Shown: positions 9,935 through 63,345 of the stretch, in pieces
How positions within the stretch are numbered: the first letter of the stretch is position 1
How the letters are laid out: every line of letters begins with the position of its first letter
From: an uncultured Treponema sp.
GTDB taxonomy: Bacteria > Spirochaetota > Spirochaetia > Treponematales > Treponemataceae
Direction: 5' to 3'
Assembly: GCA_963539665.1 (NCBI GenBank)
Contig: CAUTOX010000002.1
Location: 787-64,786 of the forward strand
Length of the DNA: 64,000 nucleotides
The notes under the pieces: model-generated
The model's input: the letters and a program-made list of their open reading frames with translations, nothing else
What the model was told of the DNA's origin: nothing
Database searches by the model: none
Made by a program: the position numbers and the translations under genes

Positions 9935-10546
9935 GTTCGATTCCTCCTTTCGCTTTTTAAAAAATATTCTTAAATAAAAACAGCGCGGTCAGGATACATT
10001 TCGGCATACCTGCGCGTATACCGAAAAAACATCGCTTGTGTGTATAGCCCCATGAATAAAGGCGGCTTTCTAAGACAGCCCCCCTCAACGGCTATTTTGA
10101 ATATAGAATGGACTCTCAAGATGTGGAAGACATCTTTTATCAAAAAAGGCACCTTCGTGCGAGACTTTAAACTTTTCGATTTCTTATGTCAAGTTTTCAA
10201 TTAATTGGTCATTTCGCGGCGTGATTTTTCTCTGCGGCAAGGCTCCGCAATGTTGTTAAACCTTGTTCAATAGTGCAAAGCGAACAGCGGCCTGTCCAGT
10301 GCCCCCATCTTTACGGCAACTGCCGGGCGTTTTCTGCGGAACTGCTTTATCGGAAAAACCTAACGGCAATGCTGCCTGCGCTTCGATGCTTTCTTTCTTC
10401 CGCGGGGCGGCGTGATTTTCAACCAGTTTTCCTGCACGGAAAGCCTGAAGCAGGCGCGCGACAATGTTTAGGCTGTTCGATACAATCCAACCGCTCTGCG
10501 TCCGGCAGACAAAAAAGGCGCCGGAGCGCAGAACTTGTATCTACTA

Positions 10547-49943: not shown

Positions 49944-52450
49944 AGGATTTAATTTTGCAGTCCGCCGTCCTCCGGTGTGTTTGTGTAAACCTGCGAGGGG
50001 GAAATGCGTTGGGGCGGGCGGGATGAATTTTCCGGCGGAGTTAATTTTGCAGTCTGCCTACATCCGGCGTGTTTGGCGCAAACTGGCGAGAGAGGAATAC
50101 GTTGGGGCGGGCGGATGGATTTTTTCAGACGGATTTAGCTTTACCATCCGCTTGCCTCCGGCGTGTTTGGCGCAAAACGGCGAAAGGGGATGCGCTGAGG
50201 CTGGTGGGATGGATTTTTCTGACGGATTTAATTTTACCGTCCGCTTGCATCCGGTTTATTTGGCGCAAACCGACAAGAGGGAATGCGTTGGTGCGGGTGA
50301 GATGGATTTTTCCAGCGGAGTTAATTTTACCGTCTGCCTGCATCCGGCGTGTTTGTGCCAACCGGCGAGGGAGAAATGCGTTGATGCGGGATGGATGGAT
50401 TTTCCGGCAGAGTTAGTTTTACTGGCTGCCTGCATCCGGTTTGTTTGGCGTAAACCGGCAAGAGGGAATGCGTTGGGGCGGGCAGGATGAATTTTTCCGG
50501 CGGAGTTAATTTTATCGTCCGCCGGCCTCCGGTGTGTTTGGCGCAAACCAGCGAGAGAGGAATGCATTGGGGCTGCCGGGATGGATTTTCCGGCGGAGTT
50601 AATTTTACTGGCTGCCTGCATCCGGCGTGTTTGTGCAAACCGGTGAGAGAGGGAAATGCGTTGGGGCAGGCGGATGGATTTTTTCCAGCGGATTTAATTT
50701 TATCGTCCGTCTGCATCCAGCATGTTTGGCGCAAAACGGTGAGAGGGGAATGTGTTGGAGTGGGCAGAGGGATTTTTTCCAGCGGATTTAGTTTTACCGT
50801 CCGCCTGCATCCGATTTGTTTGGCGCAAACTGGCGAGAAGGGAATGCGTTGGTGTGAGCGGATGGATTTTTTCAGATGGAGTTAATTTTACCGTCCGCCT
50901 GCATCCGGTGTGTTTGCAACCGGCGAGAGAGGAGTGCGTTGGTGCTGACGGGATGGATTTTTCCAGCGGAGTTAATTTTATCGTCCGCCTGCCTCCGGTG
51001 TGTTTGTGCAAACCGGCAAGAGGGAATGCGTTGGGGCGGGCAGGATAGATTTTTTCAGATGGATTTAATTTTACCGGCCGTCTGCATCCGGCGTGTTTGT
51101 GCAAACCGGTGAGAGGGGAATGCGTTGGGGCGGGATGGATGGATTTTCTGGCGGAGTTAGTTTTATCGTCTGCCTGCATCCGGCGTGATTGGCGTAAACC
51201 GGAGAGAGAGGAATGCATTGGGCGGGCGGATAGATTTTTTCAGATGGACTTAATTTTACCGTCCGTCTGCATCCGGCGTGTTTGTGCAAACCTGCGAGAG
51301 GGAATACGTTGGGGCGGGCGGATGGATTTTTCAGATGGATTTAATTTTATCGTCCGCCGGCCTCCGGCGGAGTTAGTTTTACTGGCTGCCTGCATCCGGT
51401 GTGTTTGTGCCAACCGGCGAGGGAGAAATGCGTTGGTGCTAGCGGGATGGATTTTCCGGCGGAGTTACTTTTATCGTCCGCCTGACACCGGTTTGCGTAT
51501 GCAAAACGGTGAGAGGGAATGCGTTGGTGTGGGCGGAGGGATTTTTTCCAGCGGATTTAATTTTACCGTCCGCTTGCATCCGGCGTGTTTGGTGCAAAAC
51601 GGTGAGAGGAGGATGTGTTGGTGCGGGCGGGATGGATTTTCCGATGGATTTAATTTTACCGTCCGCCTGCATCCGATTTGTTTGGCGCAAAAAGGCGAGA
51701 GGGAAATACGTTGGGGCTGACGGGATGGATTTTCCGGAGGATTTAGTTTTACCGTCCGCCTGCATCCGATTTGCGTGTGCAAACCGGCGAGAGGGGAATG
51801 TGCGGGTGCTGGCGGGCTGGATTTTTCCGGCGGAGTTAGTTTTACTGCCTGCCTCCGGCGTATTTGGCGCAAACCGGCGAGAGGGGAATGCGTTGGTGCG
51901 GGCGAGATGGATTTTTCTGACGGATTTAATTTTACCGTCCGCTTGCATCCGGCGTGTTTGGCGCAAAACCGGAGAGAGAGTACCGCGCTGGTGCTGGCGG
52001 GATGGATTTTTCCGGCGGAGTTACTTTTGCAGTCCGCCGTCCGCCGGCGTGATTGGCGTAAACCGGAGAGAAAGGAATGCATTGGGCGGGCGGATAGATT
52101 TTTTCAGATGGATTTAATTTTACCGTCCGTCTGCATCCGGCGTGTTTGTGCAAACCGGTGAGAGAGGGAAATGCGTTGGGGCGGGATGGATGGATTTTTC
52201 GGATGGATTTAATTTTACCGTCCGCCTGACTTCGGTTTGCGTGTGCAAACCAGTGAGGGGAGTGCGTTGGTACGGGCGGGATGGATTTTTCCGGCGGAGT
52301 TAATTTTACTGGCTGCCTGCATCCGGCGTGTTTGTGCAAATCGGAGAGAGAGGAATGCGTTGGGGCGGATGGATTTTTTTCAGATGGATTTAATTTTACC
52401 GTCCGCCTGCATCCTATGTGCTTGTGCAACCGGCGAGAGGGAAACGACGC
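49944..52450. repeat. Array of about 27 degenerate tandem units of about 93 bp (hairpin-repeat family, minus orientation relative to the other clusters)
   Basis: Units start near 49947, 50040, 50133, 50226 and so on. Each contains TTAATTTTACCGTCCGCCTGCATCCGGCGTGTTTGTGCAAACCGG..GGGAATGCGTTGGGGCGGGCGGATGGATTTTT. Open reading frames appear in most frames on both strands. Confidence 0.9.
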
Positions 52451-52552: not shown

Positions 52553-52695
52553 TTCTCTTCAGCATAATGAAGGGATGTCCTTCACGGTAATGAAGAACAC
52601 TCCTTCAGCATAATGAAGGGACGGCCTTCACGGTAATGAAGAACACTCCTTCTGCATAATGCAGGACAGCTCTGCACTATGCTGAAGGCAGAGGT
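52553..52695. repeat. Tandem 46-bp repeat made of two 23-bp half-units, about 3 copies, giving six phased CCTTCA-n6-TGAAG palindromes
   Basis: CCTTCAGCATAATGAAGGGATGT and CCTTCACGGTAATGAAGAACACT alternate. The offset between equivalent positions (52563, 52609, 52655) is 46. Confidence 0.8.
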
Positions 52696-56216: not shown

Positions 56217-59210
56217 ATGAACGCTGCATTTGAAAATAACAGAGCGCAACTTTCACAGTTGACGGAATTATTTGAAAGGAATAAAAAGCAGTACAATACA
56301 TCGGCTTATGATGAAGCAAATACCCGTACCGATTTTATTGACAAGTTTTTTGAACTTTTAGGTTGGGATATAAGGAATGAACAAGGTTATTCTGAACAAT
56401 ATCGGGAAGTTGTGCGTGAAGACAAGGTAACGATAGCCGGAAGGGTGAAGGCTCCCGATTATGCCTTCAGAATAGGCAGGGTGAGGAAGTTTTTTGTAGA
56501 AGCGAAAAAGCCGAGCGTGAACATTAAAGATGACCTTGAGCCGGCGTTTCAGGTAAGGCGGTATGGGTACACGGCAAAACTCCCTTTGTGTATACTTACC
56601 GATTTTGAAGAATTTGCCGTGTACGACACCCGTATAAAACCTTCGCCTTCCGATAAACCAAGTACAGCCCGTATCTTTTACTGTACCTTCGATGAGTATC
56701 ATAAAAATTTCGATTTTATTTTTAACACTTTTTCAAAAGAAGCGATTTTAAAGGGCAGTTTCGATACCTATATTCAGGAGAACAAAAATAAAAAAGGCAC
56801 TTCCGAGGTCGACAAAGAATTACTAAAACTGATTGAAAGCTGGCGGACGGATATTGCAAAAAATATCGCACTGCGTAATCCTTCGCTCAATATTTATCAT
56901 CTAAACACTGCCGTACAAAAAATTATCGACCGCATCATTTTCTTGCGAATTGCGGAGGATAAAGAAATGGAAGAGTACGGACTTTTGCAAAAGATAACCG
57001 AAAGCGGCACAGTGTATCAAAAGCTGCAAGCTGTTTTTGACAGAGCTAATGCAAAGTACAATTCGGGACTTTTTAAACCGCATGACTGGCTCCGCAGTTT
57101 GACTATTGATGATGCGGTTCTTTCTTCTATTATAACAAGGCTTTATTACCCCGAATGTCCGTACGAGTTTTCTATTTTACCGGTGGAAATACTCGGCAAT
57201 ATTTATGAACAGTTTTTGGGAAAGATCATAAAATTCCGCAATATCGGAGGTCGACGTTTTGACGGGAGTCAAAACTCGGAGGTTTCGTCCGATAGGACGA
57301 ACACCCGACACACTGCGCTGATCGAAGAAAAGCCAGAGGTAAAAAAAGCCGGCGGTGTGTACTACACCCCACAATATATCGTCCGCTACATTGTAGAAAA
57401 TACCCTCGGCGTAAAAATAAAGGGGCAAAGCCCTGACGCTATTGCTCAGCTTAAAGTGGTTGATCCCGCCTGCGGTTCAGGCTCCTTTCTTGTTGAAGCG
57501 TATCAGCAGCTCTTGAATTATCATTTGGACTATTATTCAAGCGAAAAGGAGCAGAAGCTGGCTCTGAAAAAAAGCCGTATTTATGAATCAGGGCAAAATG
57601 TTTATAAACTCACTATTGAAGAAAAGCAGCGTATTTTGCTGAATAATATTTACGGAGTGGATATAGACGGTCAAGCTGTGGAAGTTACCAAGCTTTCGCT
57701 CTACTTAAAGCTGTTGGAAAATGAAGGGAGCGAAACGCAAGGGCAGTTATTTAAGTTTTCGGACATGAAGCTTTTACCCTCGCTCGATTCGAATATTAAA
57801 TGCGGCAATAGTCTTGTCGGTTCCGACTATTATAACGAAAAAGACGTAAGCCTTTTTGACGATGAAGTAATGCGGAAAATCAATACCTTTGACTGGGACA
57901 AGGAATTTCCGGAAGTCTTTGCTCAAGGCGGTTTTGACTGTGTGATTGGGAATCCGCCGTATGTGAACATCAGTGTATTTCCTGAACTGCACACATATTT
58001 GCAAATAACATATCCTATAATACACACAGGTTATAACGATTTGATGTATTATTTTATGTATCGCGGTATTGAGTTCTTAAAAGAAGATGGATTGTACGGT
58101 ATTATTACTTCAAATTATTTTTTGGGAAATGAATATGCGAAAAAATTACGAGTCTTTTTATCCGACAAGATTACCAAAATTTTAAATTTTAAAAATGCAA
58201 AAATATTTAGCGCAAATGTACATACTGCATTAGTATTTGCAGAAAAACATACAACAAATGACATCGATATTTTTACATATTCAAGCGATAAAGCTCCTGA
58301 TTCCGTAATTATAGAAAATGATTACTCATATATCACGATGAAAAGGAATACACTCAGTGAAGTATGGATTCTTGCCGATAGCAAAAAACAGCATGTTATT
58401 GACAAAATGAAAACAGATTCAATATATCTTGGTGATATAATGATTATCGAAAAAGGATCATCATCAGGTAAAAATGATATTTTTACAGTACCGCTTTCCG
58501 TTGCGGAAGAAGGTGCTTTTGAAAAAGACCTTATACGAAAAAATATAAAAAACGGCGATATTCATAGATACCGTTTAGAAAATAGGAAAACCGTTCTGAT
58601 TTATACAGATAACAAAACCGACATAAAAAAGTATCCGAATATTTATAAATATCTTTCAGCACATAAAAAAGAACTCAGCAACAGAAATGAGGTTTCAAAA
58701 GGAGCCTATGCATGGTATCGATTAGAGCGCCCTCGTGATAAAAATATTTTTGATGCAAAAGAAAAATTGATTGTCCCATATCGGGCAACACAGAATCGCT
58801 TTGCATATGATAATCAACAGTATTTCAATGACGGCGGTGATATCCGTGCATTAGTAATGAAAGAAAATATGCCTTTTAATATTAAATATCTACTGGTATT
58901 ACTCAACTCAAAACTACACAACTGGTATTTTGGCTTTATCGGTAAATCAAAAGGAAATACGCGGGAATATTTTAATAAACCTCTTGCAGAAATTCCCATA
59001 AAAACTATTTCACCGGAGGATCAAGCCCCGCTTATCACTCTTGCAGACCAGATGCTTGAAACGCAACGCAGATTGCAGCAAGCCCTATCCGATGAGGATA
59101 AAAAACTCTTGGAACAACGAGCGGCAATTATTGATAAGCAGATAGATAAGGCGGTATACCAGCTATACGGCTTAACGGAAGAAGAAGTGAAGATTGTGGA
59201 GGGGGAGTAA
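56217..59210 (+). CDS. Type IIG restriction enzyme / N6-adenine DNA methyltransferase (single chain: N-terminal PD-ExK nuclease, Eco57I-type gamma-class MTase, C-terminal specificity region)
   Basis: HsdR_N-like nuclease motif APDYAF...FFVEAKKP. Helical linker ILGNIYEQFLGK. AdoMet motif VVDPACGSGSFLVEAY. Catalytic motif VIGNPPYV. 997 aa. Confidence 0.85.
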   Translation: MNAAFENNRAQLSQLTELFERNKKQYNTSAYDEANTRTDFIDKFFELLGWDIRNEQGYSEQYREVVREDKVTIAGRVKAPDYAFRIGRVRKFFVEAKKPSVNIKDDLEPAFQVRRYGYTAKLPLCILTDFEEFAVYDTRIKPSPSDKPSTARIFYCTFDEYHKNFDFIFNTFSKEAILKGSFDTYIQENKNKKGTSEVDKELLKLIESWRTDIAKNIALRNPSLNIYHLNTAVQKIIDRIIFLRIAEDKEMEEYGLLQKITESGTVYQKLQAVFDRANAKYNSGLFKPHDWLRSLTIDDAVLSSIITRLYYPECPYEFSILPVEILGNIYEQFLGKIIKFRNIGGRRFDGSQNSEVSSDRTNTRHTALIEEKPEVKKAGGVYYTPQYIVRYIVENTLGVKIKGQSPDAIAQLKVVDPACGSGSFLVEAYQQLLNYHLDYYSSEKEQKLALKKSRIYESGQNVYKLTIEEKQRILLNNIYGVDIDGQAVEVTKLSLYLKLLENEGSETQGQLFKFSDMKLLPSLDSNIKCGNSLVGSDYYNEKDVSLFDDEVMRKINTFDWDKEFPEVFAQGGFDCVIGNPPYVNISVFPELHTYLQITYPIIHTGYNDLMYYFMYRGIEFLKEDGLYGIITSNYFLGNEYAKKLRVFLSDKITKILNFKNAKIFSANVHTALVFAEKHTTNDIDIFTYSSDKAPDSVIIENDYSYITMKRNTLSEVWILADSKKQHVIDKMKTDSIYLGDIMIIEKGSSSGKNDIFTVPLSVAEEGAFEKDLIRKNIKNGDIHRYRLENRKTVLIYTDNKTDIKKYPNIYKYLSAHKKELSNRNEVSKGAYAWYRLERPRDKNIFDAKEKLIVPYRATQNRFAYDNQQYFNDGGDIRALVMKENMPFNIKYLLVLLNSKLHNWYFGFIGKSKGNTREYFNKPLAEIPIKTISPEDQAPLITLADQMLETQRRLQQALSDEDKKLLEQRAAIIDKQIDKAVYQLYGLTEEEVKIVEGE
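57250..57305. repeat. Double-hairpin module inside the RM coding sequence (candidate in-frame repeat-element insertion)
   Basis: GTTTTGAC-GGGA-GTCAAAAC (57256-57275) and TTCGTCC-GATA-GGACGAA (57284-57301). The layout is the same as GTTTTGCC-GTA-GGCAAAA ... GGACG-GTA-CGTCC in the intergenic repeats. Confidence 0.55.
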
Positions 59211-59360
59211 TAATATTATGAGATATGATTATATGAATACAAAAAAACGATAACGGAAGATTTTAAACTATTAACAGCTCGTAATATAATAGATATTCTT
59301 GATGGTGATACAAAATTTGGTACATTTACATTTGAGAATGGCAAATATTTTGCAATTGCT

Positions 59361-60209
59361 ATGCCGTATTTAACAGGTCCAATGTTGTGTAGTATTTCAA
59401 CTCAATTCGGTCTTGCGGTTAGATACAATTTTGATACAACCAATGATAAAAAACAAAATAAAAGCAGATGGACATATCTAACTGATTTATTTGAATATTC
59501 TATTATGACCGGTTCTTGTTCAAATTTGCTATCATATCTTTTCGCACGAAAAAATTTTACAAATGAAACTTTTAAACAAAATATGAAAGATGATTCTTAT
59601 GGGTATCAAAATTATCAAGAGTTAGACGATAACGAAACTAATTATGCATACAAAATAATTATTGAACGAGTTATTAAAGAAATAAATGAATTATTAAAAT
59701 TTAGTCAAAAAGAACTCGCTATTGTATCAGATAATATTATTATAAAACCTATTACTGATGATATTAAAATTGAAACACCAAAAATAAAAAATATGGATGA
59801 TAAATATATTCAAAGTAAAGCTAACCAAGCTAAAGTTCATATCGAACAAGGTCAGTACGATACAGCCCTTACTCAAGCCCGCACAATATTGGAAGAAGTA
59901 TTTTGTTATGTCCTTGAAAGGAAAAATATAGAACCTATAGCAGCAGGAAAAATTGGAGAACTTTATAAACAAGTACGAGAAGTTTATAATATGCATATAG
60001 ATGATAATACTGATAAAAGAATAAAAAAATTATTATCGGGACTTAACACGATTGTTGATGCTATAGCGGAAATGCGAAATCAAATTAGCGATGCTCATGG
60101 ACAGGGTTCAAAAAGAAAAAGCATAAGAGATTATCATGCCCGACTCGCTGTTAATTCGGCTATTACGGCAGCAGAGTTTATTTTATCGGTATATGAACAT
60201 GCTACATAG
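59361..60209 (+). CDS. Abi_C-domain (abortive infection C-terminus) protein; the reading frame may begin at 59218 through a -1 shift at an A7 tract
   Basis: The C-terminus LSGLNTIVDAIAEMRNQISDAHGQGS...YHARLAVNSAITAAEFIL matches the Abi_C signature (RN..sdaHG). AT-rich. The in-frame open stretch extends upstream to 59229 without an ATG. Confidence 0.65.
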   Translation: MPYLTGPMLCSISTQFGLAVRYNFDTTNDKKQNKSRWTYLTDLFEYSIMTGSCSNLLSYLFARKNFTNETFKQNMKDDSYGYQNYQELDDNETNYAYKIIIERVIKEINELLKFSQKELAIVSDNIIIKPITDDIKIETPKIKNMDDKYIQSKANQAKVHIEQGQYDTALTQARTILEEVFCYVLERKNIEPIAAGKIGELYKQVREVYNMHIDDNTDKRIKKLLSGLNTIVDAIAEMRNQISDAHGQGSKRKSIRDYHARLAVNSAITAAEFILSVYEHAT

Positions 60210-60222
60210 CATAAAACTGTAA

Positions 60223-60350
60223 CAAGCCCTATCCGATGAGGATAAAAAGCTCTTGGAACAACGGACGACAATTATTGATAAGCAGATAGATAAGGCGGTA
60301 TATAAATTGTATAATTTAGCGGAAGAAGAAGTAAAGATTGTGGAGGGGGA
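60223..60350. repeat. Diverged direct copy (offset 1144 bp) of the last 128 bp of the RM gene (59079-59206)
   Basis: CAAGCCCTATCCGATGAGGATAAAAA.CTCTTGGAACAACG...ATTATTGATAAGCAGATAGATAAGGCGGTATA...GAAGAAGAAGT.AAGATTGTGGAGGGGGA is present at both sites. The second copy would encode ...QALSDEDKKLLEQRTTIIDKQIDKAVYKLYNLAEEEVKIVEGENDY*. Confidence 0.85.
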
Positions 60351-60352
60351 AA

Positions 60353-62626
60353 ATGATTACTGAAATTACGATGAAAAATATCGCGACTTATAATAATATT
60401 GGTGTTAAACTTGAGGGATTAAAACGGCTCAATTATTTTTTTGGAAACAATGGTTCCGGAAAATCTACAATCGCAAAATATTTGCAATCGCTTGTAATAG
60501 GTGATCCGGAAAATAAATATTCATCATGTTCAAAAGAAAATTATAACCCTATGCAGGAAGAAATTCTTGTGTTTAACCAAGATTTTGTCGAGAGAAATTT
60601 TAGGCAAAGCCAAGTCCTAAAAGGTGTTTTCTCATTAAATCAAAAGAATGCTGAAATTGATAAACAAATAAAACTAAACGAAGAAAGTATTTCAAACAAA
60701 CGTAGAACAAAGAATGACATGGAAGAAGAGAATAACATACTTGATCAGCAAAACAATCAACTTAAAACAGAATTAACAAAAAAATGTTTTAATAAAAGAA
60801 ATGTTTTTAAATCTTTTTCAAAAATGAGACTTGATCATTCAAAGAATATGAAAAATAATTTAGAACAAGTTGAAAAAATCATTCAGAATAATAGTATTGT
60901 AAAACCAGACTTTAGTACCCTAAATGATTTATATAAAAAGCTTTATGAAGATGATTTAAGCAGTATTGATGTTTTACTTGATATACAATTATTTGATGAG
61001 TTATTGCAAAAACATAATGAACTATCAGTATTGTTGCAAGAAATTATTATAGGTAAAGAAGATGTACAATTAGCAAAATTGATAAATGAATTTGGTTTAA
61101 AGTCTTGGGTTGCGCAAGGTAAAACATTTCTTGAGAAAACAAAGACTGTTTGTCCGTTTTGTCAAAAAGAAACGATAGACAATGATTTTATTTCGCAATT
61201 AAATGATATTTTTGACGAATCGTCAAAACAAAAGATAGACAAAATAAAAAGTGAAAAAATCATTTATGAGAATACATTCAAAAGGGTTTTGCAAAATATT
61301 CAAGCCGTATATGAAAAATACAATGTGAAAAACATTGTTTCAAATCTACAAATGAGCTTAAAAACCATTTATGATATTAACTTAAAAATAATAAGTGATA
61401 AAATCAATGCACCGAATGAAAAGAAAGCACTTGATGATATAACAGAATCATTTAAAAATATACTATTACAAATTAATAAGGAAATAGAAAATAATAATAC
61501 TCTTGTCAACTCTCTTGATACTCAAAAAGAGTCTTTAGAAAAACAAATATGGGATTACATTGCTCTTGACTGCAAAGATGATATTCTAAAATATCAAGAA
61601 GAGACTAAATCAACTACTGAAATTATTAATAAAAATAAAACTGGAATTGCGAGACTACTAGCGGAAATACAACAATTAGAACAAGAAAATGCTACACTAA
61701 GAGATAAAACTGTTAATACTACAGAAGCCGTTTATAATATAAATAAAATTTTGGAAAACTCCGGCTTTATGGGTTTTAAAATTTGTGAACAAACTAAAGA
61801 AAATAACATCTCCCAATATTATTTATCAAGAAATTCGAAAACACGTGAAGGTAATATATTTAATAGTTTGAGTGAAGGAGAGAGCAATTTTATTGCATTC
61901 TTATATTTCTACCAACTTTGTTTAGGTACTACGGATATTCAAGAAGGTTCTGAAAAAAAGAAAATAATTGTTATCGACGACCCTGTTTCAAGTATGGATA
62001 GCCAAGTATTATTTATCGTTTCAACATTAGTAAACAGGTTAATAACATATAAAGGCAGGAGCGGAGGAGAAAAAAAGGAGTTTCTAAATGGAAACATTGA
62101 ACAAGTTTTCATATTAACTCATAATTATTACTTCTATAAAGAAGTTGCAATGCAAAAACGACCTATATGTAAATCCCAACAGCATTATCTAATCGAAAAG
62201 AATGCGATTAATGAGTCATACATAAAATTGCGTGAATATAAAGAATACGATGACTATGCATTAATGTGGCAAACAATAAAAGAAGCAAAAGAAAAATTAT
62301 CTGATGACAATAAAGAACAAAATATTCTCCTGGCGAATTTATTTAGACGTATTTTAGAAAGCTATGCTAACTTTATAGGGCTTGGTACGGATTCTTGGGC
62401 AACTATTCTGGCGGATAATGACAAAGATAGTATGGAACATCATTTGAAAACTGCTTTTATTTCAATGATCAATGATGAAAGTCACAAAGTTTCGCCATTT
62501 GATAATTTTTATTTTCAAAAGATTCATAATGCTAATCCATCAAAGTTGTTTGAAGTATTTGAATCAATCTTCAATACTATTGGTAAAGAGCATTACGATA
62601 GGATGATGGAACCCAATAAATTATAA
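60353..62626 (+). CDS. AAA_13-family ATPase with coiled-coil CxxC hook and a PrrC/RloC-like C-terminal region (candidate anticodon nuclease)
   Basis: Walker A FFGNNGSGKSTI. Long coiled-coil segment with VCPFCQ. Walker B/D-loop IIVIDDPVSSMD. H-loop ILTHNYYF. C-terminal LFRRILESY...(37 aa)...NDESH resembles the PrrC/RloC Arg-Glu-His arrangement. The start is taken at the ATG at 60353. Confidence 0.7.
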   Translation: MITEITMKNIATYNNIGVKLEGLKRLNYFFGNNGSGKSTIAKYLQSLVIGDPENKYSSCSKENYNPMQEEILVFNQDFVERNFRQSQVLKGVFSLNQKNAEIDKQIKLNEESISNKRRTKNDMEEENNILDQQNNQLKTELTKKCFNKRNVFKSFSKMRLDHSKNMKNNLEQVEKIIQNNSIVKPDFSTLNDLYKKLYEDDLSSIDVLLDIQLFDELLQKHNELSVLLQEIIIGKEDVQLAKLINEFGLKSWVAQGKTFLEKTKTVCPFCQKETIDNDFISQLNDIFDESSKQKIDKIKSEKIIYENTFKRVLQNIQAVYEKYNVKNIVSNLQMSLKTIYDINLKIISDKINAPNEKKALDDITESFKNILLQINKEIENNNTLVNSLDTQKESLEKQIWDYIALDCKDDILKYQEETKSTTEIINKNKTGIARLLAEIQQLEQENATLRDKTVNTTEAVYNINKILENSGFMGFKICEQTKENNISQYYLSRNSKTREGNIFNSLSEGESNFIAFLYFYQLCLGTTDIQEGSEKKKIIVIDDPVSSMDSQVLFIVSTLVNRLITYKGRSGGEKKEFLNGNIEQVFILTHNYYFYKEVAMQKRPICKSQQHYLIEKNAINESYIKLREYKEYDDYALMWQTIKEAKEKLSDDNKEQNILLANLFRRILESYANFIGLGTDSWATILADNDKDSMEHHLKTAFISMINDESHKVSPFDNFYFQKIHNANPSKLFEVFESIFNTIGKEHYDRMMEPNKL

Positions 62627-62648: not shown

Positions 62649-63001
62649 ATGTCTTATGAACCAGTTATTGAACAAGTAAAAATGCTGCCGGAGCCGCTAT
62701 TGGCTTCCTTAAAATTCACCGCTACAGGAAGTTTGAACTTCCGAAAGCGCTGAATTGGTGTGCGCAAGCACACATATAAATAGGCGATGTTTTGTATTTT
62801 TGCAAAACTCGCGTTTAAGTTGAACGACTTTATCTTAGTCGTTCAACTTAAACTATAGTGACAGCTTTTATCAAATTGCTTGAAGCAGAGCAAGGTTGTG
62901 TTACGGGAAATTATACCAAGCAAGCATTCTTTGCATTAGCAGGGAAAATCCATCTTGACCAAGATGCAGTAACCGAATTACGCGAGGCAAGATTGATATG
63001 A
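62649..63001 (+). pseudogene. Disrupted antitoxin gene (DUF2281/VapB-like), split by an insertion of about 150 bp
   Basis: A good RBS (AAGGAGG) precedes MSYEPVIEQVKMLPEPLLASLK. After the multi-hairpin insert (about 62716-62866) a different frame reads ...FIKLLEAEQG...FALAGKIHLDQDAVTELREARLI*. The stop overlaps the next ATG (ATGA). Confidence 0.45.
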
Positions 63002-63024
63002 TTTTGGTAAACACGAATATTAAA
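62998..63024 (+). pseudogene. Stub of a PIN-domain (VapC-like) toxin gene, truncated by a MITE
   Basis: MILVNTNI is a typical VapC N-terminus (MxLxDTNI). The frame runs straight into the element at 63021-63057 and stops. Confidence 0.4.
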
Positions 63025-63057
63025 CCTGTTCGGAAACGCAGTTATCGAACAGGTCTA
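63021..63057. mobile_element. Minimal MITE copy (termini only)
   Basis: TAAACCTGTTCGGAAACGCAGTTATCGAACAGGTCTA is the left and right termini of the 52712-52835 element joined together. Confidence 0.6.
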
Positions 63058-63120
63058 TTATCATAGACTTTTGGAATAATCCTACAGCTGCTGTTGGAAA
63101 AAAACATTGGCTCTTGACTA

Positions 63121-63345
63121 TCATCTTTTAAATATTTGCTTAATTACTTTGCCCCCTCCCCTCAAAAAAAATAAACCAGAAACCGGTGTTTTTCTTACAA
63201 CTCATCTACCTCTCTCTACCCCAAAATAAGATTCATCAAGTTCAAAAGTTCCAATTTCTTTTTCAGTTTTTTTGAATATCTTTCTCATATTATATTGAAA
63301 TATCGATTAACTGCGTTACGATTTACACCCACAATTCAATTTTAG
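63121..63345 (-). pseudogene. IS1595-family (ISXO2-like) transposase fragment with frameshifts and stops
   Basis: Minus-strand pieces VGVNRNAVNRYFNII / REKIFKKTEKEIGTFELDESYFGVER* / VVRKTPVSGLFF / LRGGGKVIKQIFK lie in different frames. Compare the family pattern E(I/L)DESYFGG...GKTPVFG(L/I)..RGGKV. Confidence 0.5.

Follow-up and report, generated by a model that had tools for sequence, protein, structure and literature searches.

The stretch of DNA considered here, hereafter the window, comprises 64,000 nucleotides (nt) of contig CAUTOX010000002.1 from an uncultured Treponema sp. (assembly GCA_963539665.1, positions 787 to 64,786 of the forward strand), and our subject is a set of three co-oriented genes on its + strand. 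In order, these are a Type IIG restriction-modification (RM) gene, an AbiJ-family HEPN gene and an RloC-type AAA_13 ATPase gene. An earlier note, made from the letters alone, had described the same three open reading frames (ORFs) as a restriction-methylase of 997 amino acids (aa), an Abi_C-type gene and a 757-aa AAA_13 ATPase, a description borne out by the ORF list, Pfam and PADLOC; the profile searches it proposed, for AAA_13, Abi_C, Eco57I/N6_Mtase and HSDR_N, all returned matches. Its phrase 'layered restriction / abortive-infection island' is a fair description, and its account of base composition is right. GC content is 52% in the upstream core genes, 41% in the N-terminal part of the RM gene and 31% in its specificity part, rises to 47% over the last 195 nt of the RM gene, and is 29% in AbiJ and 28% in RloC. 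The genes do not, however, follow one another with 'almost no spacing'. A gap of 150 nt between the RM and AbiJ ORFs is the out-of-frame 5' end of AbiJ, and the gap of 143 nt between AbiJ and RloC holds a relic of an RM gene, namely of its 3' end. A weak scan found no terminator-like sites between the three genes (such sites lie at chance level in AT-rich DNA), and a promoter scan, uninformative in AT-rich DNA, returned 43 promoter-like sites where about 30 were expected. Each of the three genes falls into a known family, and their combination does not by itself make a new system.

The RM gene (56217-59210, +) is intact and encodes 997 aa. It matches the PADLOC model REase_MTase_IIG PDLC03604 (E=1.6e-199, model positions 5-1004 of 1011) and the Pfam domains HSDR_N (31-139), Eco57I (476-664), N6_Mtase and TaqI_C (780-928), and the PD..ExK, PACGSGSF and NPPY motifs that had been noted earlier are readable in its translation. 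A single chain thus carries an N-terminal PD-(D/E)xK nuclease, a gamma-class N6-adenine methyltransferase and a C-terminal target recognition domain (TRD), which is the Type IIG architecture. A scan of NCBIfam gave no family-level names, the RM protein yielding just sub-threshold matches to the PglX and MAD2 methylases, and Pfam and PADLOC gave no Type I subunit match for any of the three proteins. The Eco57I/MmeI-like Type IIG enzymes have the same single chain, PD-ExK nuclease, gamma-class N6A methyltransferase (NPPY) and TaqI_C-type TRD, and likewise undergo wholesale TRD replacement. What sets the window gene apart from them is its conserved 3' tail, which appears to serve also as the left-hand boundary of a variable defence slot and, probably, as that slot's ribosome-binding site.

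Comparison with related loci (given L numbers below) shows how the RM gene varies. These loci are mostly short-read metagenome contigs, which are not independent strain samples, and counts of them are not frequencies; the named strains among them are Treponema sp. OMZ 305 (L002, a complete genome) and Treponema sp. Marseille-Q4130 (L005, whole-genome shotgun), the other records being labelled as metagenome-assembled genomes. The conserved nuclease and methyltransferase part of the RM gene (56217-57967, +, 41% GC) has 87-94% nt identity to L001, L002 and L108, and 86-91% aa identity to nine related RM genes. The specificity (TRD) module (57968-59015, +, 31% GC), by contrast, has no DNA similarity to L001, L002, L007 or L108, while both of its flanks match at 84-99%, and the stretch of no similarity coincides exactly with the GC drop in the gene. 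At the protein level, the window TRD is 77-81% identical to those of L086 and L107 but about 25% identical, or unalignable, to those of L001, L002, L089, L099, L102 and L108. This TRD type is paired with AbiJ in L086 and with HamA in L107, and the AbiJ-RloC block of the window is 99.4% identical in L001 despite a different TRD. As judged from these alignments, the RM gene is a mosaic whose specificity domain is swapped between strains, and TRD and cargo assort independently. The RM gene of L007 is frameshifted at its 3' end.

The third gene (60353-62626, +) encodes 757 aa from an ATG at 60353, the mechanically called ORF opening at a TTG at 60338. It matches Pfam AAA_13 (1.5e-114, model positions 2-712 of 713) and the PADLOC candidate family PDC-S06 (4e-180), the name under which PADLOC files this protein. 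RloC, described from Geobacillus kaustophilus and Acinetobacter baylyi (Davidov & Kaufmann 2008, PMC2610378; COG4694, 'wobble nucleotide-excising tRNase'), is defined by PrrC-like ABC motifs, a Rad50-like coiled coil with a CX2C hook, a catalytic triad of the form Arg-X3-Glu-X36-52-His, often with Ser before the His, and a length of 658-897 aa. By its sequence, ORF3 has every one of these features. Its length of 757 aa lies inside the range, and its ABC motifs, namely GNNGSGKST (residues 31-39; Walker A, nt 60443-60469), the signature LSEGE (506-510), the Walker B/D-loop IIVIDDPVSSMDS (538-550) and the switch-His motif THN (589-591), show little or no variation across alignments of 13 and 63 homologues that reach down to 42% identity. 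The CPFC hook and the C-terminal RRILES...NDESH region pointed out in the earlier note are present and conserved in both alignments. The hook, C267-P-F-C270 (nt 61151-61162), sits in the coiled-coil insert, between Walker A and the signature motif, and is invariant in the 63 sequences. In the C-terminus, for which the note had suggested a comparison with the PrrC/RloC triad, the triad reads R665-x3-E669-x41-S710-H711 (nt 62345-62485), with R665, S710 and H711 invariant and E669 at least 90% conserved in the same 63 sequences. The triad of the G. kaustophilus protein (R692/E696/H737) and that of the window (R665/E669/H711) both have the form R-x3-E-x36-52-(S)H. The closest proteins are those of Treponema sp. 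Marseille-Q4130 (84%) and Treponema sp. OMZ 305 (81%), and homologues at 42-45% identity bear the Joint Genome Institute label 'wobble nucleotide-excising tRNase'. RloC is split into two ORFs in L007 (2676-4920) and L087, through a frameshift or an assembly error.

An AlphaFold model of the window RloC (pLDDT, the predicted local distance difference test, 80) predicts an ABC head in two parts, an all-helical C-terminal domain and two long helices (97-152 and 388-451); on either side of these helices' shared centre, a helical region, CPFC is placed between two short strands. The best folds in the PDB are Rad50 (E=2e-8), SMC heads, Lamassu LmuB and JetC; a sequence search of the PDB returned nothing, either with the single sequence or with a 13-sequence profile. 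PrrC was also considered for ORF3 and rejected, as 757 aa is too long, a CPFC hook is present and there is no Type I locus; no PrrC-named model is among its nine PADLOC matches. The PrrC-EcoprrI system resembles the window in combining an ABC ATPase with a HEPN-type anticodon nuclease, in its triad logic and in its cis linkage to a restriction system. However, PrrC has 341-416 aa, lacks the coiled coil and zinc hook, and always lies in a (Type Ic) hsdMSR locus, where it is silenced, whereas the window RloC has 757 aa and a hook and stands behind a Type IIG gene, and its relatives also occur solo.

The middle gene, ORF2 (59361-60209, +), is a 282-aa ORF opening at an internal ATG. It matches Pfam Abi_C at residues 200-275 (2.5e-23) and PADLOC AbiJ at model positions 24-279 of 281 (1.2e-70), while the full-length relative P0123 covers model positions 4-279. 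It has an R-x6-H motif, contained in MRNQISDAH (motif at nt 60075-60098), of the R-x4-6-H form expected of HEPN proteins. AbiJ proteins (Lactococcus; HEPN family, PMC3710099) share with it the PADLOC AbiJ match (E=1e-70 to 1e-77 across these loci), the Abi_C domain and R-x6-H, and some lie in an operon with RM genes (PMC3710099). The window copy differs from known AbiJ in lacking its first ~43 codons in frame and in having an RM-tail relic on its 3' side. The N-terminal domain is not complete in the window ORF, whose missing codons lie upstream in another frame. There, from an ATG at 59218 or 59233, the DNA reads MRYDYMNTKKR and a stop (59218-59253, +), where a tract of seven A residues (A7, 59241-59247) is followed by TAA, and one extra A would restore the AbiJ frame. 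L086 and L099 have an A8 tract and an uninterrupted AbiJ of 325-330 aa, and AbiJ is also in frame in L007, L087 and L093, which read AAAAATT at the tract position. L001, an independent metagenome contig, has A7 as in the window. Full-length relatives measure 325-337 aa; within the 90%-identity cluster, 8 of 11 members have 325 or 330 aa, and the listed 282-aa member comes from the window's own contig. As read from these sequences, the window AbiJ is off or N-terminally truncated through the A7/A8 difference, and the tract is a possible on-off switch (phase variation) or a sign of decay. A sequence search of the PDB with AbiJ gave chance-level matches only. One S. thermophilus AbiJ homologue was inactive in the panel of PMC12322248.

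AbiJ is bracketed by a 133-nt direct repeat whose two copies are 87% identical. The first copy, t1 (59074-59206, +), is the last 133 nt of the RM gene and encodes ..QQALSDEDKKLLEQRAAIIDKQIDKAVYQLYGLTEEEVKIVEGE. The second copy, the relic t2 (60218-60350, +), adjoins the RloC start codon; its translation still reads QALSDEDKKLLEQRTTIIDKQIDKAVYKLYNLAEEEVKIVEGE, and its final letters, GGAGGGGGAAA, immediately precede the RloC ATG, which places GGAGGGGG 3 nt upstream of that codon. The intact tail is common to 20 or more related contigs. It ends in GTGGAGGGGGA and a stop codon, and in most cases the ATG of the next gene, the cargo, follows 3-22 nt later, a spacing that makes it probable that the cargo is co-transcribed with the RM gene. 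Relics of the tail lie between cassettes in the window and in L001, L007, L087, L089, L099, L108 and L110. The t2 relic is 98-99% identical in L001, L108 and L110, where either RloC or a SIR2-HerA pair follows it. The nearest precedent is the rloC gene of G. kaustophilus, which stands beside an hsdR relic (PMC2610378).

The origin of these relics can be narrowed down. Simple local duplication of the resident tail was rejected as a general origin because L007 and L087 have a resident tail of type B and a relic of type A; the relic there arrived with foreign DNA. Across the loci examined, AbiJ and the relic join at an identical point, as if the junction had arisen once and later spread. The repeats (66-133 nt) are pieces of a protein-coding gene with variable left ends, of the kind that homologous, and not site-specific, recombination could leave. 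A phage-borne origin was also set aside, since the tail pattern found no match in a viral contig collection. Separately, t2 carries a promoter-like TAGATA-17-TATAAT at 60287-60315 (10/12 matches) that is absent from the intact t1, and the A'-type intact tails of L086, L102 and L107 hold the same TTGTATAAT inside the RM coding sequence.

The related loci can be used to ask whether the triplet is a unit, as the earlier note had supposed. Its conserved linkage stands in part. The order RM-AbiJ-relic-RloC recurs in L001, L007 and L087, and with an added 291-aa gene (RM-291aa-AbiJ-relic-RloC) in L110. The parts are nevertheless separable. In OMZ 305 (L002) a Type IIG gene of the same family stops at 9994 and RloC starts at 10001, with a 6-nt gap and no AbiJ, and in Marseille-Q4130 (L005) RloC is solo, with no RM gene nearby and a decayed tail relic with an internal stop before it. 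L099 and L102 have the same RM gene and the same downstream core genes, but L099 holds AbiJ and a relic where L102 holds RloC. In L108 the order is RM-291aa-AbiJ-relic-SIR2-HerA-toxin/antitoxin-partial relic-bSEFIR, with a relic 99% identical to window t2. In the loci examined, AbiJ always has an RM-tail relic on its 3' side. RM-RloC operons are spaced by 3-9 nt, and each of the ten close Treponema RloC genes whose contig extends upstream comes directly after a tail or relic (in L005, the decayed relic only).

A metagenome scan with the tail's DNA pattern found 23 contigs and revealed how varied the cargo is. In contigs of this RM family the tail is followed by AbiJ, RloC, Hachiman HamA, PDC-M11A/B, a KAP NTPase, bSEFIR, a 328-aa protein with a PycC-like cyclase, a second AAA_13 type, a RES-domain set and several unknowns; in all, the same tail precedes at least 10 unrelated cargo types. 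In the more distant L088, whose tail is 49% identical, GajA/GajB cargo begins 206 nt after the tail. One recurrent cargo protein of 291-295 aa (MTLSGQTIKNLREI...; L108 3324-4199, L089 625-1509 on the - strand, L110 3842-4717) lies directly after an RM tail or relic. Pfam gave no match for it and PADLOC a single one, of 60 residues, to the Stk2 N-terminus; it is a candidate defence gene. Likewise, the 328-aa protein, which has no family match, and its PycC-like nucleotide cyclase lie directly after the RM tail (L090 843-1826 on the - strand, L106 1241-2050), and are possibly a Pycsar-like pair with an unrecognised effector.

Outside Treponema the picture is different. Among 79 RloC genome loci searched with tblastn, no RM or AbiJ homologue was found near RloC outside that genus except one opposite-strand Eco57I-type gene in L038. 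RM-related genes are a minority among the upstream neighbours of 68 distant RloC homologues (HsdS 7, ResIII 3, Eco57I 2, N6_N4_Mtase 2, Mrr 2). One of the HsdS cases is in Treponema sp. UBA4267 (L008), at 7 nt spacing. RNA-repair genes also occur directly upstream of these homologues (L008-L084), RlaP in 7/68 and RtcB in 3/68, which puts a presumed tRNA-cutting enzyme beside genes for RNA repair. The earlier note had held that RloC usually accompanies Type I or III RM loci; the source papers contradict this, with a count of 8/72 (PMC2610378) and the word 'rarely'. The window and close Treponema RloC genes depart from PMC2610378, which has just occasional Type I or III linkage, in forming an operon behind a single-chain Type IIG gene.

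Taken together, we read the locus as an RM-anchored slot that holds two stacked, exchangeable cassettes, each part acting independently, and not as an integrated three-protein machine; we put the probability of this reading at about two in three. The RM tail precedes many unrelated cargo systems, which makes RM adjacency a property of the slot and not of RloC. The Type IIG enzyme would be the first line, restricting unmethylated incoming DNA, with a specificity module exchanged between strains. Cargo would be co-transcribed with the RM gene and translated from the Shine-Dalgarno-like GGAGG of the tail, and would be swapped by homologous recombination, with the RM gene or its tail providing homology at the left and the antitoxin gene or core genes at the right. 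Judging by the relics and allelic contigs, a cassette may at times be added instead of replaced, in which case a tail relic stays behind between cassettes, and such an addition would account for the position of AbiJ between RM and RloC. By the published mechanism of its family, RloC may act as a Rad50-like zinc-hook, DNA-dependent ATPase that responds to DNA breaks by activating the HEPN-type RNase at its own C-terminus. That RNase, going by what is known of the family, would excise the tRNA wobble nucleotide and halt translation in infected cells. AbiJ would be a separate HEPN RNase abortive-infection gene, off or N-terminally truncated in this strain.

Several points weigh against this reading and should be kept in view. 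The activities of RloC, AbiJ and the RM enzyme at this locus are predictions from sequence. Going by spacing, the three genes probably form one transcription unit, and GGAGGGGG in t1 is probably positioned as the ribosome-binding site of the next gene. The linkage of RloC to the RM tail is tighter than co-residence in an island, and functional dependence is one possible cause. Where strains share a repeat such as the tail, short-read assembly can join them wrongly, and single junctions may be chimeric; the arrangement pattern recurs in many samples, anchored by the complete genome of OMZ 305 and the Marseille-Q4130 record.

The earlier note had placed the Abi_C protein between guard and effector in a dedicated three-part system. 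That proposal does not survive the comparison, given separable parts, at least 10 other types of cargo and a frameshifted AbiJ. The PrrC-like arrangement that underlies it we consider unlikely: the Type IIG enzyme would bind and silence RloC, and perhaps AbiJ, until a phage anti-restriction factor frees the RNase. It draws on the tail or relic that adjoins the 5' side of all ten close Treponema RloC genes, on their 3-9 nt spacing from the RM gene, and on the PrrC-EcoprrI precedent, and linkage of HEPN proteins to RM has already been proposed; the G. kaustophilus rloC gene, too, stands beside an RM-gene relic (PMC2610378). Yet the same tail introduces many unrelated systems, and a solo RloC exists in Marseille-Q4130. 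Under nearly identical AbiJ and RloC, moreover, not only TRDs but whole RM clades change (53-55% against 86-91% identity in the N-terminal part), and among the 68 RloC homologues elsewhere RM-type upstream neighbours are in the minority. Published RloC also has a switch of its own: its zinc hook and DNA-break-responsive ATPase operate without an RM system, and activation was seen even in an RM-deficient host.

Coupling need not involve physical silencing. RloC might instead sense the double-strand ends cut by the adjacent Type IIG enzyme and raise a translation-arrest alarm, an idea that suits its predicted Rad50-like fold with a zinc hook, the conservation of the RM-RloC operon in Treponema, and the activation of the RloC ATPase and nuclease by DNA and by double-strand-break inducers, as reported in published work. 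We regard it as improbable, since suicide is counter-productive once restriction has succeeded and exchangeable cargo speaks against a dedicated partnership. Finally, the island could be an eroding remnant of little effect, in which AbiJ is a pseudogene and the other parts drift. The frameshift in AbiJ, the degraded toxin-antitoxin (TA) pair downstream and the broken RloC of L007 and L087 all point that way, but the window RM and RloC genes are full length with all catalytic motifs intact, and A7/A8 is a single reversible step whose two states both occur among close relatives, and we find general decay very improbable.

Within the slot reading, a more specific model can be put forward tentatively. 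The RM tail may be a capture-and-expression platform, in which promoterless defence cassettes, any of which could bring along a copy of the tail, are excised, inserted and stacked by recombination and expressed through the RM transcript and GGAGG. If this is so, the RM gene would have two roles, as the front line of defence and as the place where a strain-variable second line docks and is expressed, and the locus would resemble an integron array in which homologous recombination at a coding sequence does the work of an integrase. With integron arrays it seems to share a stack of apparently promoterless cassettes that all point the same way from a fixed platform and have a repeat after each one; the repeats in the window differ in being pieces of a protein-coding gene. 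The ORF lists for 55.7-63.5 kb, in which the profile scans covered the three main proteins, show no integrase- or recombinase-like ORF, and this too separates the locus from integrons.

Much of the wider framework is already in place. A 2013 paper (PMC3710099) already linked AbiJ, PrrC/RloC and 14 further HEPN clades with RM operons and set out the idea of a 'multi-pronged defence', and ABC-ATPase and HEPN systems embedded in RM loci have been discussed as a back-up to restriction (PMC10250203; bioRxiv 10.1101/2024.01.29.577857). Defence hotspots and embedded systems at RM, BREX and Hma loci (same sources) likewise offer one slot for many alternative systems between conserved flanks. The slot in the window differs from these in being flanked on the left by Type IIG coding sequence, the 3' end of the gene, in that cargo begins 3-22 nt past the stop codon, and in the copies of the coding tail between cassettes. 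The term 'IIG' does not occur in the embedding preprint (bioRxiv 10.1101/2024.01.29.577857). A limited literature search, which is weak evidence, found no description of a Type IIG coding 3' tail as the left border of a slot, of cargo starting a few bases after a Type IIG stop codon, or of coding-tail copies between stacked cassettes.

The locus can be put to use in several ways. The recurrent operon of RloC behind a Type IIG gene in oral-type Treponema offers a two-gene setting for the old question of a cis-partnership between RloC and restriction. The RM tail marks a compact slot in which genes of unknown function (the 291-aa protein, the 328-aa protein with its cyclase, and a set of 420- plus 351-aa proteins) are mixed with known systems, and it could serve as a cheap 'guilt by docking' probe in metagenomes. 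More broadly, the locus gives a small-scale view of layered immunity, with TRD swapping, cassette stacking that leaves coding-sequence relics, and a possible A7/A8 switch.

On the right, RloC is followed by a degraded flank (62649-63092, +), recognised by comparison with relatives. A 75-aa antitoxin-like gene is split into 62649-62711 and 62858-63001 by a 149-nt insert (62709-62857), and about 40 nt are left of its partner PIN toxin gene (63056-63092). The gene or genes of this flank are intact in L002 (antitoxin), L100 and L108, and in other contigs the 75-aa antitoxin-like gene is a recurrent right flank after RloC, SIR2-HerA and the cyclase pair. The 149-nt insert has a hairpin with a 17-bp stem, and the same split antitoxin copy is found in L108 (10297-10667) and L109. 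The earlier note's view of this region as TA and mobile-element debris holds for the TA remnants; its miniature inverted-repeat transposable element corresponds to a hairpin element (62810-62856) that has no second copy within the window. A short ORF further on (63202-63288, -), reading ..ELDESYFGVERGR, resembles a fragment of an IS1595-type transposase and may be the IS debris of the earlier note.

Upstream of the locus, at 49945-52443 of the window, a 93-nt GC-rich unit is repeated in tandem about 27 times (74-78% matches), in a region whose GC skew is strongly positive and whose ORFs, on both strands, are all short and overlapping. Just 5' of a topoisomerase-like gene, at 52557-52668, stands a short tandem repeat of 23/46 nt.

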